The position numbers and the translations under genes were made by a program. From an uncultured Eubacteriales bacterium (GTDB lineage: Bacteria > Bacillota > Clostridia > Christensenellales > Pumilibacteraceae), in the NCBI GenBank assembly GCA_902783025.1, contig CACZPH010000048.1, forward strand, positions 1-55,146: 55,146 nt of DNA, given 5' to 3'. Of the stretch, positions 25,230-31,025 are shown piece after piece (within the stretch, counting starts at the first letter, position 1; the number at the start of each line of letters is the position of its first letter). Under the pieces are notes generated by a model, which was given only the letters and a program-made list of their open reading frames with translations, was not told the origin of the DNA and searched no databases.

Positions 25230-26003
25230 ATGCCTATACTTGTCAAAGCAAAAATCGAAAACCGCGACAGACTGAGCGTTTATCCTTTCTTTTCTAAACT
25301 GTTCCGCGACGGTTTTACGGTGGAATTCGATCCCATAACGATCATCGCCGGCGAAAACGGCGTGGGAAAATCGACTTTTCTCGAGTCTCTTGCCCATTCG
25401 ATAGGCTTTTCGTCGTTTGGCGGAGGCATAAATCACACGACGATCTTGGGCGGCGTGAATTATGCCATAGTACACGGCAACAACCCATGGGAAACGCTAA
25501 AGGAGTCGGCGGAAGAGGACGACGATCTGATTTCGCAGATCGACGATTGCACGCTCTCCGATTATATGAAACTATCCTGGCAATACAAAACGAAAAAAGG
25601 CTGGTTTGTCCGCGCCGAGACATTTGCCGCGCTCGTCAGCATAGGGCTTAAGGATTTTTACGCGGGAGATAGGAGCCACGGCGAAGGGATCGTCGACGTT
25701 TTAAACGGGATAGAGCAAGAGGGGATATATATTCTCGACGAACCCGAGTCGGGTTTGTCCCCGAGCAAAATGATGCATATGATGCTCATTATTTCCCAAA
25801 AACAGAAACAATACGGCGCGCAGTTTATTATTTCCACGCACAACCCTATGCTTATGAGTATTCCGGGCGCGAAATTACTGTATATGACGACGGACGAAAT
25901 AAAACGGGTTGCGCCGGAGGAAACGCCGCACTTTCAGTTGACTAAGTATTTTTTGAATAATCCGGAAGGCTTCATAAACAAACTTTTTTCGGACGACGAG
26001 TGA
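25230..26003 (+). CDS. AAA/ABC-like ATPase (COG3910-type predicted ATPase)
   Basis: Walker A GENGVGKST and Walker B IYILDEPESGLSP. The start lies 3 nt after the HAD stop. Confidence 0.7.
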   Translation: MPILVKAKIENRDRLSVYPFFSKLFRDGFTVEFDPITIIAGENGVGKSTFLESLAHSIGFSSFGGGINHTTILGGVNYAIVHGNNPWETLKESAEEDDDLISQIDDCTLSDYMKLSWQYKTKKGWFVRAETFAALVSIGLKDFYAGDRSHGEGIVDVLNGIEQEGIYILDEPESGLSPSKMMHMMLIISQKQKQYGAQFIISTHNPMLMSIPGAKLLYMTTDEIKRVAPEETPHFQLTKYFLNNPEGFINKLFSDDE

Positions 26004-26123: not shown

Positions 26124-26218
26124 GGAGAAATACCCAAGAGGCTATAAGGGGACCCCCTGCTAAGGGGTTAGTACGGGCTTTACCTGTAGCGCGAGTTCGA
26201 ATCTCGCTTTCTCCGCCA
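26124..26218 (+). tRNA. tRNA-Ser (anticodon GCU), class II with long variable arm, CCA encoded
   Basis: Hand-folded. Acceptor GGAGAAA/TTTCTCC. Anticodon stem ACCCC/GGGGT with loop CTGCTAA. Variable arm TACGGG-CTTTA-CCTGTA. T arm GCGAG-TTCGAAT-CTCGC, then GCCA. Confidence 0.9.
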
Positions 26219-26260
26219 CGAAAAGGGCAATCGCTTGATTGCCCTTTTTCCGTGGGGAGA
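26211..26260 (+). repeat. Left copy of the 50-bp perfect direct repeat (att-like)
   Basis: CTCCGCCACGAAAAGGGCAATCGCTTGATTGCCCTTTTTCCGTGGGGAGA is identical to 30902-30951. It includes the last 8 nt of tRNA-Ser. Confidence 0.9.
26221..26249 (+). terminator. tRNA-Ser terminator (inside the direct repeat)
   Basis: AAGGGCAATC / GCTT loop / GATTGCCCTT followed by TTT. Confidence 0.75.
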
Positions 26261-26303
26261 AAGCGAGAAGGAGAACTTTGACTTTATACAGATTTTGGCT
26301 TTC

Positions 26304-26359
26304 GGCGGGTGCTTGACCGCGGAGCAAAGCGACGCGCTTGTATTAGTCAAGCACCCGCC
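26304..26359. repeat. 14-bp perfect inverted repeat, GC-rich
   Basis: GGCGGGTGCTTGAC (26304-26317) / GTCAAGCACCCGCC (26346-26359) with a 28-nt spacer. It lies just inside the left island border. Confidence 0.7.
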
Positions 26360-26403
26360 ATAGTGCCATTTGTAAATTTTTTGTTAATATGATAAAGATT
26401 TGC

Positions 26404-26459: not shown

Positions 26460-27527
26460 ATGTTGAGTTTTATGTCCGCGAAAGAAGCCGCTGAAAAATG
26501 GGATATCTCTCAAAGAAGAGTTGCAATACTGTGTTCCGAAAATCGTATTGACGGAGCGATGATGGTCGGAAATATGTGGATCATCCCGTCTACTGCCGAA
26601 AAACCGATTGATAAAAGAACTGTTCGTTATGAAAAGGCAAGAAAGGTTACACTTAAGCCATTTGTAAAATGGGTAGGTGGTAAAAGTCAACTTGTTGAAC
26701 AGATAGAAAAAATGTTACCGTCTGACGGGGAAAAAGTTTTGACTAAATATGCAGAACCCATGATAGGTGGCGGTGCGCTTTTCTTCACTATTCTCTCAAA
26801 ATATGATTTTGAAGAGCTTTATATAAGCGACATAAACCCCGAATTGATAAACGCATATCAAGCTATAAAAAGCGACGTAGATAGTTTAATTGAAAAACTT
26901 AATGAAATGCAAATGACTTTTTTGCCTATGGATGAAAACGGCAGAAAGTATTTCTATTATAGTGTGCGCGAAAAGTTTAATTCCACCGTTTTATCGGCGG
27001 AGACTGCTACCGAAAAAGCCGCACAATTTGTTTTCTTGAATAAAACTTGTTTCAATGGCTTATATCGTGTAAATAGAAAAGGTCAATTTAACGTTCCTAT
27101 GGGTGCATACAAAAACCCGACTATTTGTGATAATGAAAATTTACGCAACATTCACGAAGCGTTGCAAAACGTAACAATAGTTTGCGGTGATTATTCGCTT
27201 TCGAAATCGTTCATAGATAAAGATACTTTCGTATATCTTGATCCCCCTTATCGTCCTATTTCCGAAACATCTGCATTTACTTCATATAATTCGGAATCTT
27301 TTGATGATAACGAGCAGATACGACTTGCACAGTTTATTGATGAAATCAACAAGTTGGGAGCAAAGATTGTTTTAAGCAATTCCGATCCGAAAAATGTAAA
27401 CGAAGAAGATAACTTCTTTGATGATTTATATAAAAACTATAAAATAAATCGTGTTGAAGCAACTCGAGCAATAAACAGCAAAGGCGATAAACGCGGAAAA
27501 ATAAATGAATTGCTTATCTGCAACTAA
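26460..27527 (+). CDS. Dam-like (DpnM-type, GATC) N6-adenine DNA methyltransferase with N-terminal HTH extension
   Basis: KPFVKWVGGKSQL, AEPMIGGGALFF and the catalytic YLDPPY are Dam-type motifs. About 60 extra N-terminal residues (SAKEAAEKWDISQRRVAILCSENRIDGAMMVGNMWIIP) resemble an excisionase/MerR-type HTH. Confidence 0.85.
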   Translation: MLSFMSAKEAAEKWDISQRRVAILCSENRIDGAMMVGNMWIIPSTAEKPIDKRTVRYEKARKVTLKPFVKWVGGKSQLVEQIEKMLPSDGEKVLTKYAEPMIGGGALFFTILSKYDFEELYISDINPELINAYQAIKSDVDSLIEKLNEMQMTFLPMDENGRKYFYYSVREKFNSTVLSAETATEKAAQFVFLNKTCFNGLYRVNRKGQFNVPMGAYKNPTICDNENLRNIHEALQNVTIVCGDYSLSKSFIDKDTFVYLDPPYRPISETSAFTSYNSESFDDNEQIRLAQFIDEINKLGAKIVLSNSDPKNVNEEDNFFDDLYKNYKINRVEATRAINSKGDKRGKINELLICN

Positions 27528-27540
27528 AGGAGTATTTTTT

Positions 27541-28416
27541 ATGAGAGGAAAAACCATAAATTTTTTTCTAATTGACGGAGAGCCTACAAAGAGAATAAAA
27601 TGTACTCTTCAAAATTGGACGGGTATTGTTTATAAAATTCCACGAGCAATGTTAGATAACTGCAAGGACGGAACGAGTGATATTGTTCGCCATCTTAAAC
27701 AGACAGGTATTTATTTCCTGCTCGGAGAAGATTCTGAAAGCGGCGAGAAGATGATCTATATTGGACAAGCCGTTGTTAGAAAAAACGGAGAAGGTTTATT
27801 ATGTCGCATTCAAGAACATAAACGTAACAATAAGGAAAAATATTGGAGTGAATGGAATGAGGTTATAGTTCTCACCACGCAGAATAATTCATTTGGACCA
27901 ACTGAAATTAGTTATTTAGAGAATCAGTTCACGTCACTTGCAAAAGAATCTCATCGATATATAGTAAAAAACGGCAATGAACCTAATCAAGGAAACATTA
28001 CCGAAGAGAAAGAAAGCGAGTTATCTGAGTATATTGATTATGCAAAAATGATAATTGGCGTGCTTGGTCACGTGGTATTCGATCCCATTGTAAAAGATAA
28101 AGAAAAAAGGAACGCCGATGAAAATACTGTTGTTTTTACATATAAAGGAAAATTAAAAGCAAATGGCATTATAACAGATGAGGGTTTTGCCCTTTTAAAA
28201 GGTAGCGAACTCAATCCCACAATTAGTAAAAGTGCCCATTCGTTCACAATAAAAGCTCGTAAATCATATGGCAATTTGATTGATGAAAACTATCGGACAA
28301 CTGAAGACATTTTGTTCTCAAGTCCATCTGCCGCAGCCGGGTTTGTTGGCGGTTGCAGTTTAAGCGGTAATGTTATGTGGGTAACTGCAGACGGGAAAAC
28401 ACCAAAAGATTTTTGA
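27541..28416 (+). CDS. GIY-YIG nuclease-like protein with C-terminal DUF4357-like domain
   Basis: GIY (TGIYFLLG), YIG (MIYIGQA), then R/H (CRIQEHKR) and E (ISYLENQF). C-terminus FSSPSAAAGFVGGCSLSGNVMW. AAAGGAG RBS 8 nt upstream of the ATG. Confidence 0.65.
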   Translation: MRGKTINFFLIDGEPTKRIKCTLQNWTGIVYKIPRAMLDNCKDGTSDIVRHLKQTGIYFLLGEDSESGEKMIYIGQAVVRKNGEGLLCRIQEHKRNNKEKYWSEWNEVIVLTTQNNSFGPTEISYLENQFTSLAKESHRYIVKNGNEPNQGNITEEKESELSEYIDYAKMIIGVLGHVVFDPIVKDKEKRNADENTVVFTYKGKLKANGIITDEGFALLKGSELNPTISKSAHSFTIKARKSYGNLIDENYRTTEDILFSSPSAAAGFVGGCSLSGNVMWVTADGKTPKDF

Positions 28417-28427
28417 GGAGAAAACAG

Positions 28428-29288
28428 ATGAAAAGAGATTTTAACAAATGGCTTGATACATTCAAAAGTAGTATTTGCGACTATAAATTTTACGTTGACT
28501 TTGAAAAAGTTTACGGTAAAGTCGATAATATCAAAGTTGAGTTGAATATTCTTAACTCGCTTATCGGTTCAAAAAATATCGAAAGCGATTTCAAAAATCT
28601 TGTGGCGGAATATCCGAAAGTTTTGAAATGCATTCCTATTTTGCTTGCTGTCCGTAGTCGTGAAATATACGCGATCGACAGCGACGGCGAATATTGGTTT
28701 AATTTTGCAAAACATAATTATTCTACCGACGAATACATAATGTTTATGCGTAAAACGGGTTTATTCTCACTTATTTCGGAACACTTGATAAACAATCTCG
28801 TTGATTATGTTACAGGCGTAGAAGTCGGACTTGATAGCAACGGTCGTAAAAATCGCGGCGGTCATTTAATGGAAGATTTAGTAGAATCGTATCTTGTGCA
28901 AGCGGGGCTTCAAAGAAACATTGATTATTTCAAAGAAATGTATCTTTCCGACGTTGAAAAGCAATGGGGTTTGGACTTGTCGAGCATTTCAAATCAAGGT
29001 AAAGCGAAAAAACGTTTTGATTTTGTGGTTAAAAAAGATAAAACCGTTTACGCCGTCGAAGCAAATTTTTATTCGAGTCAAGGTTCAAAACTCAACGAAA
29101 CCGCAAGAAGTTATAAAACTATTGCGTTGGAAGCAAAAGAAATCGACGGCTTTGCATTCGTTTGGTTTACCGACGGTCAAGGATGGAAGTCCGCTCGCCA
29201 TAATCTTGAAGAAACGTTTGACGTTTTGGATAATATGTACTGCATTACCGATATGGAAAACGGTATAGTAAAGGAACTTTTCAAGTAA
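28428..29288 (+). CDS. DpnII/MboI-family type II restriction endonuclease (GATC)
   Basis: Close to my recollection of DpnII: LNSLIGSKNIE, NNLVDYVTGVEVGLDSNGRKNRGG, KRFDFVV, NFYSSQGSKLNETARSYK and WFTDGQGW. GAGGAG RBS present. Confidence 0.85.
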   Translation: MKRDFNKWLDTFKSSICDYKFYVDFEKVYGKVDNIKVELNILNSLIGSKNIESDFKNLVAEYPKVLKCIPILLAVRSREIYAIDSDGEYWFNFAKHNYSTDEYIMFMRKTGLFSLISEHLINNLVDYVTGVEVGLDSNGRKNRGGHLMEDLVESYLVQAGLQRNIDYFKEMYLSDVEKQWGLDLSSISNQGKAKKRFDFVVKKDKTVYAVEANFYSSQGSKLNETARSYKTIALEAKEIDGFAFVWFTDGQGWKSARHNLEETFDVLDNMYCITDMENGIVKELFK

Positions 29289-29289
29289 T

Positions 29290-30033
29290 ATGGCAAAGAA
29301 AAACATACCGTTACAGCCCGAAAATTTCGAACTCGAAACAAATACAGTTTGGGCGTTCCCCGATCGCGGTAAATGGGCTACACACGACGCTAAATATCGC
29401 GGAAATTGGTCGCCGTATATTCCTAGAAACCTAATTCTGCGTTACTCAAATGAGGGCGACACTGTTTTGGATCAGTTCGTCGGTGGCGGCACTACTGCCG
29501 TTGAGGCAAAACTGACAGGCAGAAATTTTATCGGTGTCGATATTAATCCGAATGCTCTTGAAATTACAAAAAGCAAATTGAATTTCGAGTGTGAATTTAA
29601 CCCGACAATAAAAATTGAGCAAGGCGATGCGCGTAATCTTTCGTCTATTGCGGATAATTCGATAGACCTTATTTGCACGCATCCGCCTTATGCCGATATT
29701 ATTCATTACAGCGAAGATATTGACGGCGATATGTCGCTTATGTCGATGAAAGATTTTTTATTCGAAATCGGCAAAGTCGCAGAAGAATGTTATCGGGTAT
29801 TAAAAAAAGATAAGTTTTGCGCTATACTTATGGGAGATACCCGCAAAAAGGGTATGGTTCAACCACTTGCTTTTGAAACGATGCGTATTTTTGAAATGGC
29901 AGGGTTCAAGACGAAAGAGATTATAATCAAAGAACAACACAATTGCAAAGCAACTGGCTATTGGAAAACAAACAGTATAAAGTTTAATTTTCTTTTACTC
30001 GCCCACGAGTATTTGTTTGTGTTTAAAAAATAA
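29290..30033 (+). CDS. Second DNA methyltransferase (N6/N4 MTase-like)
   Basis: SAM motif VLDQFVGGGTTAVEA lies upstream of the catalytic-type motif ICTHPPYADII. The start is 1 nt after the endonuclease stop. Confidence 0.7.
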   Translation: MAKKNIPLQPENFELETNTVWAFPDRGKWATHDAKYRGNWSPYIPRNLILRYSNEGDTVLDQFVGGGTTAVEAKLTGRNFIGVDINPNALEITKSKLNFECEFNPTIKIEQGDARNLSSIADNSIDLICTHPPYADIIHYSEDIDGDMSLMSMKDFLFEIGKVAEECYRVLKKDKFCAILMGDTRKKGMVQPLAFETMRIFEMAGFKTKEIIIKEQHNCKATGYWKTNSIKFNFLLLAHEYLFVFKK

Positions 30034-30045
30034 TTAATAAAGTAT

Positions 30046-30873
30046 ATGAACAATACAACTATTATTTTTTCAGATGAAGCAGGACAGTATTACAAAAAAC
30101 CAAATGACAAACAAATTATATCTGATCCATTTTATGTTCGTTCGGCGGTATATTTAACGACAGAAGAGTATATAGCCTTTCAAAAAGATATTATAACATT
30201 GAAGAAAAAATATAATCTGCCAATTAATGAGGAGATTAAATGGTCAGATATTTACGAGTTGCAAAAGAAACGCTATAGAGCCGATTTCTTAAAAGACTAT
30301 AATATAGATAAATTAAAACAATATATTACTGATTATATATCTATTGCCCACTTGAAACAATCTATAAAATATGTTTTTACAATTTCAGGTAATCGTTATC
30401 AAAACACGGCAGATAAAGAATATATTGTTTTTGCTCATTTGCAAAATATTTATCAGCGAGCACAATTTGACGCAACCGATGAGTCGAACGATTTTTATAT
30501 GGTTATTATTGATGATATGAATGAAACGGCATTAAATAATTTACGCCAAAGATGTTGTGACTTATTACATAATGGAGATAGATTTGTTGATTATTCTAAT
30601 TTAAACCAAAGCCTTTTAGTGGAAAAAAGTGAGCAAAGTGCTGGTATTCAAATAGCCGATTATGCAGCAGGGATTTTTAACTCTGTCGCAAAAAAATATA
30701 TACTTGAAAAAAATTCGTACGATTATGCCAATAGATTGTATTCAATGTATATAGCACCTAAAATAAGAAGAAAAAATAAAAAAATTTTGGGATATGGAAT
30801 AATGAAAATAACAAAAAATATGATAATACCTAACCTGAATGCACTAATCGAAGCAACGGAATCCTATTTATAG
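30046..30873 (+). CDS. DUF3800-like protein
   Basis: N-terminal IIFSDEAGQ (DE-x-G motif) and C-terminal GIQIADYAAG match the DUF3800 pattern as I recall it. This is the last gene of the island operon. Confidence 0.55.
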   Translation: MNNTTIIFSDEAGQYYKKPNDKQIISDPFYVRSAVYLTTEEYIAFQKDIITLKKKYNLPINEEIKWSDIYELQKKRYRADFLKDYNIDKLKQYITDYISIAHLKQSIKYVFTISGNRYQNTADKEYIVFAHLQNIYQRAQFDATDESNDFYMVIIDDMNETALNNLRQRCCDLLHNGDRFVDYSNLNQSLLVEKSEQSAGIQIADYAAGIFNSVAKKYILEKNSYDYANRLYSMYIAPKIRRKNKKILGYGIMKITKNMIIPNLNALIEATESYL

Positions 30874-30901: not shown

Positions 30902-30951
30902 CTCCGCCACGAAAAGGGCAATCGCTTGATTGCCCTTTTTCCGTGGGGAGA
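30902..30951 (+). repeat. Right copy of the 50-bp perfect direct repeat (att-like)
   Basis: Base-for-base identical to 26211-26260. It includes a second copy of the terminator hairpin (30912-30940). Confidence 0.9.
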
Positions 30952-31025
30952 GAGGCTCGATTCTCACCGAACGCTTGCGCGTTCTGTTCCTCGCGCTTCG
31001 GGCATAGCCCTCGCGGGCTTTAGCT

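Follow-up and report, generated by a model that had tools for sequence, protein, structure and literature searches.

The classical DpnII restriction-modification (R-M) cassette of Streptococcus pneumoniae (dpnM-dpnA-dpnB), like those of MboI and LlaDCHI, consists of the same three enzyme families that make up the locus described here, without any gene in the accessory position that is our subject. Among Type IV enzymes, which attack modified DNA, GmrSD and McrB carry a fused DUF4357 domain (PMC4619093, PMC5714182, PMC11090510). The RAMA domain was named from its fusions to adenine methylases and restriction nucleases, with discrimination of N6-methyladenine (m6A) predicted (PMC4738411), and a fusion of GIY-YIG with RAMA counts among the proposed Type IV candidates that await characterisation (PMC11037411). 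Here, we examine a gene for a 291-residue GIY-YIG/DUF4357 protein (hereafter, the GIY-YIG gene) in contig CACZPH010000048.1 (assembly GCA_902783025.1) of an uncultured Eubacteriales bacterium, using "the window" for the full 55,146-nucleotide (nt) stretch that was analysed. The gene is the second of five in the order dam, GIY-YIG gene, dpnII, dpnA, and a DUF3800 gene, with intergenic gaps of 13, 11, 1, and 12 nt. Its architecture and its linkage to R-M systems are already known from the literature and from PADLOC; in the literature library that was searched, no paper describes an accessory slot of this kind, polymorphic and nucleotide-exact, in a DpnII-type operon, and none links DpnII with a GIY-YIG/DUF4357 gene.

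Using the window's DpnII as a query, we fetched metagenome loci (L096-L131) and compared cassettes in which DpnII is 82-97% identical to that of the window (88-97% where the slot is in a state other than the GIY-YIG gene). The slot, taken as the interval from the dam stop (…TTGCAACTAA) to the dpnII start (ATGAAAAGAGATTTTAA…), was seen in four states (Table 1)—empty, as in the L107 junction TTGCAACTAAGGGAGAAATAACAGATGAAAAGAG; filled by the GIY-YIG gene; filled by a gene for an Mrr_cat protein; or filled by a gene for a PD-(D/E)XK-like protein with a DUF5655 domain. Every insert opens with its own ribosome-binding site right past the dam stop and closes 9-11 nt before the dpnII ATG. The three slot proteins, each of about 290 residues, are mutually unrelated, and hhalign comparison of the DUF4357 C-terminal domain with those of the Mrr_cat and DUF5655 proteins likewise gave no relationship. 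The Mrr_cat slot protein also has an extra C-terminal domain of about 130 residues without assignment.

At the nucleotide level, the window's GIY-YIG gene is 99.3% identical to its counterparts in L104, L115, and L116, whereas the flanking genes in the same comparisons have diverged to 81% (dam), 82-93% (dpnII), and 72-82% (dpnA) identity, apart from stretches bordering the gene, about 100 bp on its left side and about 400 bp on its right, where identity is higher. Near-identity within diverged flanks shows that the GIY-YIG gene has recently passed by recombination from one diverged cassette to another. On a longer timescale, gene and cassette have diverged together, down to 60% identity, and a ratio of nonsynonymous to synonymous substitution rates (dN/dS) of about 0.04-0.13, a rough figure given that synonymous sites are saturated, indicates strong purifying selection. 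Compared with L081, it is the most conserved gene of the cassette, with a dN of 0.071 against 0.12-0.24 for the R-M genes. A pseudogene or chance open reading frame is ruled out by the dN/dS values together with thousands of full-length relatives.

Turning to the protein itself, AlphaFold2 returned a confident two-domain model (predicted local distance difference test score, pLDDT, 85.6) in which residues from about 180 to 197 form a flexible linker. The N-terminal catalytic core, residues 53-146, runs in this model through a GIY strand (56-63), a YIG strand (70-77), a helix with R89, E92, and H93, a strand (105-112), a helix with E127, and finally N144; the two motifs, contained in the region GIYFLLGEDSESGEKMIYIG, lie on adjacent model strands some 10-11 residues apart, as the superfamily requires. 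Nine residues (G56, Y58, Y73, G75, R89, E92, H93, E127, and N144) are invariant across 38 close relatives, and among 85 relatives at 35-64% identity G75 is invariant while G56, Y58, Y73, R89, E127, and N144 are at least 90% conserved. Aligned by hhalign to residues 1-120 of Escherichia coli UvrC, the family profile matched over 77 columns (E = 2e-4) with GIY, YIG, Arg, and Glu in register and the UvrC Asn falling three residues before N144. The Pfam GIY-YIG model PF01541 matches seven of the 85 relatives (best E = 4.9e-5), and in a search of viral folds (BFVD) GIY-YIG proteins lead, with probabilities of 0.98-0.99 in the top four and E-values of only 2e-3 to 1e-2. An NCBIfam search of the 291-residue protein gave no GIY-YIG match, and sequence and profile searches of the PDB with the protein, its full-length alignment (A1), and the C-terminal domain alignment (A5) gave nothing meaningful; a Telethonin match in Pfam (17 bits) lies below its cut-off and was treated as chance. 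We therefore accept the GIY-YIG core without a direct model match, as well supported by conservation, the UvrC alignment, PF01541 in relatives, and the viral fold matches. The original prediction, made from the letters alone, had read this core from the segments TGIYFLLG, MIYIGQA, CRIQEHKR, and ISYLENQF, all of which are present with their key residues conserved in both sets of relatives, and had asked whether the catalytic Arg and Glu would be—R89 and E127 are. Its reading of the C-terminus as DUF4357-like is likewise borne out by a Pfam match above the cut-off.

That match (PF14267) covers residues 248-287, nt 28282-28401, at 49 bits against a cut-off of 38.4 (E = 5.6e-13), and is found in all 85 relatives. 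The C-terminal domain as a whole (residues 198-291) is larger than the Pfam segment and, when modelled alone, reaches a pLDDT of 96.5. Several observations connect it to RAMA. In two relatives the RAMA model PF18755 exceeds its cut-off of 35.2 bits over the DUF4357 segment (P0127, 39.1 bits; P0163, 37.6 bits), and RAMA matches at E ≤ 0.01 occur in 12 of the 85 and 19 of the 38 relatives, with RAMA positions of about 50-97 coinciding with DUF4357 positions 14-54. As a RAMA reference we used the C-terminus of CcrM, which is identical to PDB 6PBD and matches RAMA at E = 2e-19. Comparison of the DUF4357 profile with a CcrM-family RAMA alignment by hhalign was weak (E = 0.0015, probability 16%), in a sensible register that lays SxSxAAxFVxGxSxNGxxxW over GSIHKxGAxVQxAPACNGWTYW of CcrM; with the single CcrM C-terminus in place of the alignment, the C-domain profile aligned at the NGW motif alone (3% probability). 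A homologue search with the C-domain profile yielded no architecture that was new, only short DUF4357 fragments, 26 in all. The profile comparisons make it probable that DUF4357 corresponds to the core of a RAMA-like domain, a membership that is putative for this protein. In some relatives (P0127, P0163, P0165, P0185, and P0234), two to five tandem DUF4357/RAMA copies follow the GIY-YIG core, in proteins of up to 1207 residues.

The protein belongs to a large family that is not confined to DpnII cassettes. It matches PADLOC family PDC-S14 (PDLC04925) over its full length (residues 1-290, E = 2.7e-93); a word-indexed search found 5446 relatives and an exhaustive search 3467 cluster representatives, which PGAP names "GIY-YIG nuclease family protein". 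We mapped 81 loci, comprising 80 species genomes and one metagenome contig. A Dam methylase lies immediately upstream in 11 of these, ten of which are Dam-X-(DpnII)-DpnA cassettes, X being the GIY-YIG gene; Type I hsd genes lie within four genes in 29, usually on one strand in the order hsdM-hsdS-hsdR-(YgjP)-X, and McrBC lies within the same distance in three more. Restriction genes (Type I, Dam/DpnII, or McrBC) are therefore found within four genes of a family member in at least 43 of the 81 loci, a lower bound because the reference set is small and many contigs are short. By Pfam tally, the upstream neighbours include 12-14 HsdR, 10 Dam, and 4 YgjP, plus MmeI, Eco57I, and McrBC, and the downstream neighbours seven DpnII and five GmrSD, such that association with N6-adenine methylases and restriction nucleases is seen through Dam, Type I, MmeI, and Eco57I neighbours. 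Relatives at 57-73% identity nevertheless stand among housekeeping genes with no nearby restriction gene (L002, L007, L013, and L061), and in others at 57-59% identity the gene upstream is hsdR, not dam; the protein is therefore not tied to one partner. A more distant relative, 27% identical, is wedged between Type I hsdS and hsdR beside the anti-phage gene ppl on an Acinetobacter pittii plasmid (L087, 4810-9801). Family members are uncommon in plasmid records (44 of 72,556) and rare in phage records (3 of 50,697). In one locus (L003, 8897-9436), a 179-residue PDDEXK_11-type protein stands in place of DpnII, with dam, the GIY-YIG gene, and dpnA kept.

What the original prediction had said of the gene's setting agrees with these results: it is wedged between a methylase and an endonuclease (Dam 13 nt upstream, DpnII 11 nt downstream), it has a strong AAGGAG ribosome-binding site in a tightly spaced operon with no terminator predicted around it, and its architecture is frequent near R-M loci while having no assigned function beyond a PADLOC candidate family and a fusion awaiting characterisation (PMC11037411). 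What is weakened is the implication that the gene forms an integral part of the DpnII system, given that it is exchangeable slot cargo and that close relatives live without an R-M partner.

The explanation we favour, though tentatively, is that the GIY-YIG/DUF4357 protein is a Type IV-like defence nuclease that works autonomously, is carried as exchangeable cargo, and is unable to target methylated GATC (Gm6ATC). In such a scheme, the N-terminal domain would cut DNA by one-metal, tyrosine-activated chemistry and the C-terminal DUF4357/RAMA-type domain would hold or sense DNA. The gene would be one of several interchangeable single-gene modules combining a nuclease with a C-terminal reader, rather than a core part of DpnII; homologous recombination would drop such a module into the slot from dam stop to dpnII start, after which it would be co-transcribed and travel with the R-M cassette. 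The protein would then serve as a second line, cutting foreign DNA whose features, for instance modified or hypermodified bases, put it beyond the reach of the R-M system, and would have to leave the host's own GATC-methylated DNA alone. Nuclease activity, a defence role, and dependence on DNA modification are all things that we infer. The exclusion of Gm6ATC as a target is a firmer matter: coexistence with predicted Dam-type methylation in at least 10 operons implies that the protein cannot attack it. Autonomy, as seen in the solo relatives, the sharing of the slot with an Mrr-type nuclease, and the clustering of the family with Type I, GmrSD, and McrBC genes all speak for this explanation. 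The layout of a nuclease and a separate reader in one gene also fits Type IV, yet this copy and many others lie in methylase operons.

That last point is one of several that count against it. Modification-dependent enzymes are usually found without adjacent methylases (PMC11037411), and here the gene is packed translationally right behind a methylase gene, which is also the place that a methylation-sensitive nuclease would need. PDC-S14 is a defence candidate by guilt-by-embedding only (PMC10855318), and our literature search found no experimental paper on PDC-S14 or DUF4357. Direct detection of GIY-YIG and of RAMA also fell short in the protein itself—neither the Pfam GIY-YIG models PF01541 and PF20815 nor RAMA (PF18755) match it, even at E ≤ 10. 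The structure prediction and fold search that the original prediction had proposed were favourable in part, in that GIY-YIG proteins lead the viral fold matches and the order of strands and helices fits, but Foldseek of the whole model and of the C-domain model against the PDB produced low-TM (template modelling) noise only, with no match to GIY-YIG proteins, 6PBD (CcrM), or MPND. Finally, the RAMA domains of known structure, in CcrM and MPND, show no preference for a base or for 6mA when they bind double-stranded DNA (PMC9963953), such that any "reader" role for the putative RAMA-like tail is conjectural.

An alternative is dependence on the R-M system, in which the protein would be an accessory nuclease that is either methylation-sensitive, taking the neighbour's adenine methylation as the mark of self, or latent until a phage blocks R-M, as PrrC is with EcoprrI. 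We consider this unlikely, while acknowledging what recommends it: gaps of 13 and 11 nt are all that separate the gene from M and R, 27%-identical relatives lie between hsdS and hsdR on an Acinetobacter plasmid, PrrC provides the precedent of a nuclease gene embedded in and silenced by an R-M locus (PMC1484252), and all of the linked systems (Type I, Dam, MmeI, and Eco57I) write m6A, in keeping with the original rationale for the RAMA name (PMC4738411). On the other hand, close relatives live without R-M neighbours, one subfamily (>55% identity) occurs in both Type I and DpnII contexts, the protein has no PrrC-like NTPase regulatory domain, and the slot takes three unrelated proteins or none, which makes specific protein-protein coupling to DpnII or Dam improbable. 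There is also a slim chance that the DUF4357/RAMA tail reads m6A as a generic "self" signal in any sequence context, making the protein a plug-in methylation-sensitive restriction subunit for any m6A writer (Dam, DpnA, or Type I); this would explain both the place after a methylase gene and the linkage to adenine-methylating systems only.

The exactness of the insertion raises a different possibility, namely a free-standing, homing-type selfish endonuclease that would cut the empty dam/dpnII junction and spread by recombinational repair without benefit to the host. GIY-YIG is a classic homing-nuclease fold, the insertion between two conserved genes is precise and polymorphic for presence and absence, and the tracts of raised identity on both sides (about 100 bp and 400 bp), around a gene that is 99.3% identical within flanks at 72-93%, resemble co-conversion. 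We nonetheless judge homing quite improbable. Few phage records contain a family member (3 of 50,697), no NUMOD, IENR1, or helix-turn-helix (HTH) DNA-binding modules of homing type were found, and the gene has been under strong long-term purifying selection (dN/dS at most 0.13) and has co-diverged with the cassette down to 60% identity. Other members of the family terminate Type I operons or stand alone; moreover, the slot equally accepts Mrr-type and PD-(D/E)XK+DUF5655 genes, both defence-island candidates. Very improbable, in our view, is a role in repair or nicking linked to adenine methylation (compare Vsr with Dcm, or MutH with Dam), in which the protein would process lesions or hemimethylated intermediates rather than attack foreign DNA. 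GIY-YIG domains do act in repair, with UvrC being the best profile match, and the family is constantly linked to adenine methylases, but empty-slot cassettes show the gene to be dispensable, Mrr-type nucleases can replace it, it is enriched beside GmrSD and McrBC, and no mutagenic lesion is known to be specific to m6A. A control role like that of C proteins was ruled out by the conserved catalytic residues and the lack of an HTH.

The remaining features of the locus are collected in Table 1. The ATG of the GIY-YIG gene lies 8 nt past the AAGGAG, which itself comes right behind the dam TAA, a junction that is the same in L104 and L115, and homologues share this one start Met, such that an upstream ATG at 27505 is not the start. 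Promoter and terminator prediction gave nothing outstanding around the gene, the only terminator-like matches being two weak ones inside coding sequence (dam, 27401-27420; dpnA, 29996-30011), and this, together with the short gaps, leads us to read the five genes as a single predicted operon. At its N-terminus, Dam is extended by some 60 HTH-like residues (window 26460-26640) with a weak HTH_17 match (E = 0.003), whereas the cassettes of L092-L095 and L081 have a separate small HTH gene ahead of a shorter Dam, which suggests a fused versus a separate controller. The DUF3800 gene is very AT-rich (28-34% G+C) and without a PADLOC match; a 98%-identical copy follows dpnA in L108 and L111.

Table 1. 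Coordinates of the features in the window (nt positions) and of the four states of the dam/dpnII slot (locus names, with example positions in the locus named).
Feature	Position	Strand	Evidence
tRNA-Ser(GCT); 3' end is the islet integration point	26124..26218	+	ARAGORN
53-nt direct repeat, left copy	26211..26263	.	repeat search
Dam-type (D12 class) N6-adenine methylase, DpnM-like	26460..27527	+	PF02086 E 2e-66; TIGR00571 dam E 3e-91
AAGGAG ribosome-binding site of the GIY-YIG gene, directly 3' of the dam stop	27527..27532	+	sequence
Gene for GIY-YIG + DUF4357 (putatively RAMA-like) protein, 291 residues	27541..28416	+	PADLOC PDC-S14 match; homologues; AlphaFold2 model
GIY-YIG catalytic core, residues 53-146	27697..27978	+	model secondary structure; conservation; hhalign to UvrC; BFVD matches
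C-terminal domain, residues 198-291, putatively RAMA-like	28132..28413	+	PF14267; domain model; RAMA matches in relatives
R.DpnII-family restriction endonuclease, cuts unmethylated GATC	28428..29288	+	PF04556 E 1.4e-108; PADLOC REase_II E 4e-101
Second methylase, DpnA-like (N6_N4_Mtase)	29290..30033	+	PF01555 E 1.7e-27; PADLOC MTase_II E 4e-118
DUF3800 protein gene, fifth of the operon	30046..30873	+	PF12686 E 1.2e-11
53-nt direct repeat, right copy	30902..30954	.	repeat search
Slot empty, 14-15 nt	L098, L107, L113		junction sequences
Slot holding the GIY-YIG/DUF4357 gene	L104, L115, L116, window		99% protein identity
Slot holding Mrr_cat protein, 283-290 residues	8 loci, e.g. L100 1833-2684		PF04471 E 6e-21; PADLOC mREase_IV E 6e-9, PDC-S02
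Slot holding PD-(D/E)XK-like + DUF5655 protein, 296 residues	9 loci, e.g. L096 2733-3623		PADLOC PDC-S18 E 2e-124

The five-gene unit forms a 4.7-kb islet of low G+C content (about 35% inside and 52% outside) at a tRNA-Ser gene, delimited by two copies of a 53-nt direct repeat that are 98% identical and 4691 nt apart; no integrase is found inside it. Related cassettes adjoin other tRNA-Ser genes, tRNA-Ser(GGA) in L107 and tRNA-Ser(TGA) in L104. Just inside the left end of the islet (window ~26301-26382), within a 14-bp inverted repeat (GGCGGGTGCTTGAC / GTCAAGCACCCGCC), lies the motif GTCAAGCACCCGCCA.AGTGCCATTTGA, which also stands at both element ends in L111 (14-129 and 5449-5506) and L108 (47-71 and 5426-5450) and may be a candidate recombination site. 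Upstream of the tRNA and at host G+C content, the window encodes a 257-residue AAA_21/ABC-type ATPase (25230-26003) with weak AriA, MADS3, and PtuA matches. In L092-L095, SAVED and AGS_C genes (CBASS-like) come after a cassette encoding P0009, a relative at 73% identity, and in L092-L094 a large serine recombinase gene precedes the cassette, the sequence of L095 being cut short upstream; this cassette marks a predicted composite mobile defence island.

Near-identical DpnII operons in four slot states amount to a natural experiment in which occupants can be compared in an isogenic background, for a large family that has been listed solely as a defence candidate. What RAMA/DUF4357 senses is the wider question; the idea of an m6A reader was not borne out for MPND. 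More generally, the locus shows that extra single-gene nucleases can be carried by Type II R-M operons, just as prrC is by Type I loci.

Set against known systems, prrC within Type I loci is the closest precedent for an accessory slot in an R-M operon. As in the EcoprrI (hsd) locus, a nuclease gene is wedged among R-M genes, where PrrC acts as a back-up to restriction; PrrC, however, is a tRNase under the control of an ABC ATPase and invariably linked to R-M, whereas the protein here has a predicted DNA-nuclease fold, no NTPase domain, and free-living relatives. The winged-helix GIY-YIG Type IV enzymes Ahi29725I and Apa233I (PMC11037411) are similar in joining a GIY-YIG cutter to a small DNA-reading domain in single-gene defence nucleases, but their reader is an N-terminal winged helix that demands Gm6ATC and adjacent methylases are rare, while here the second domain is a C-terminal, putatively RAMA-like one and the host methylates GATC, excluding that specificity. 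GmrSD and McrB with DUF4357 have the same C-terminal module on nucleases or translocases that attack modified DNA, and differ in their catalytic partner, which is ParB/HNH or a GTPase rather than GIY-YIG. Likeness to the RAMA domains of CcrM (6PBD) and MPND lies in the Pfam RAMA matches over the DUF4357 segment in relatives and in a signature that aligns with CcrM; the difference is that the protein itself has no direct Pfam RAMA or Foldseek match, and that hhalign gives the relationship a probability of 16%. In the immigration control region of E. coli K-12, where hsdRMS lies by mrr and mcrBC, Type IV nucleases similarly cluster with an m6A-type R-M system, although as separate transcription units, whereas here the nuclease gene lies inside the predicted R-M operon. 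Finally, compared with the classical DpnII cassettes, which are without X, the order here is M1-X-R-M2, with X the gene in the slot.

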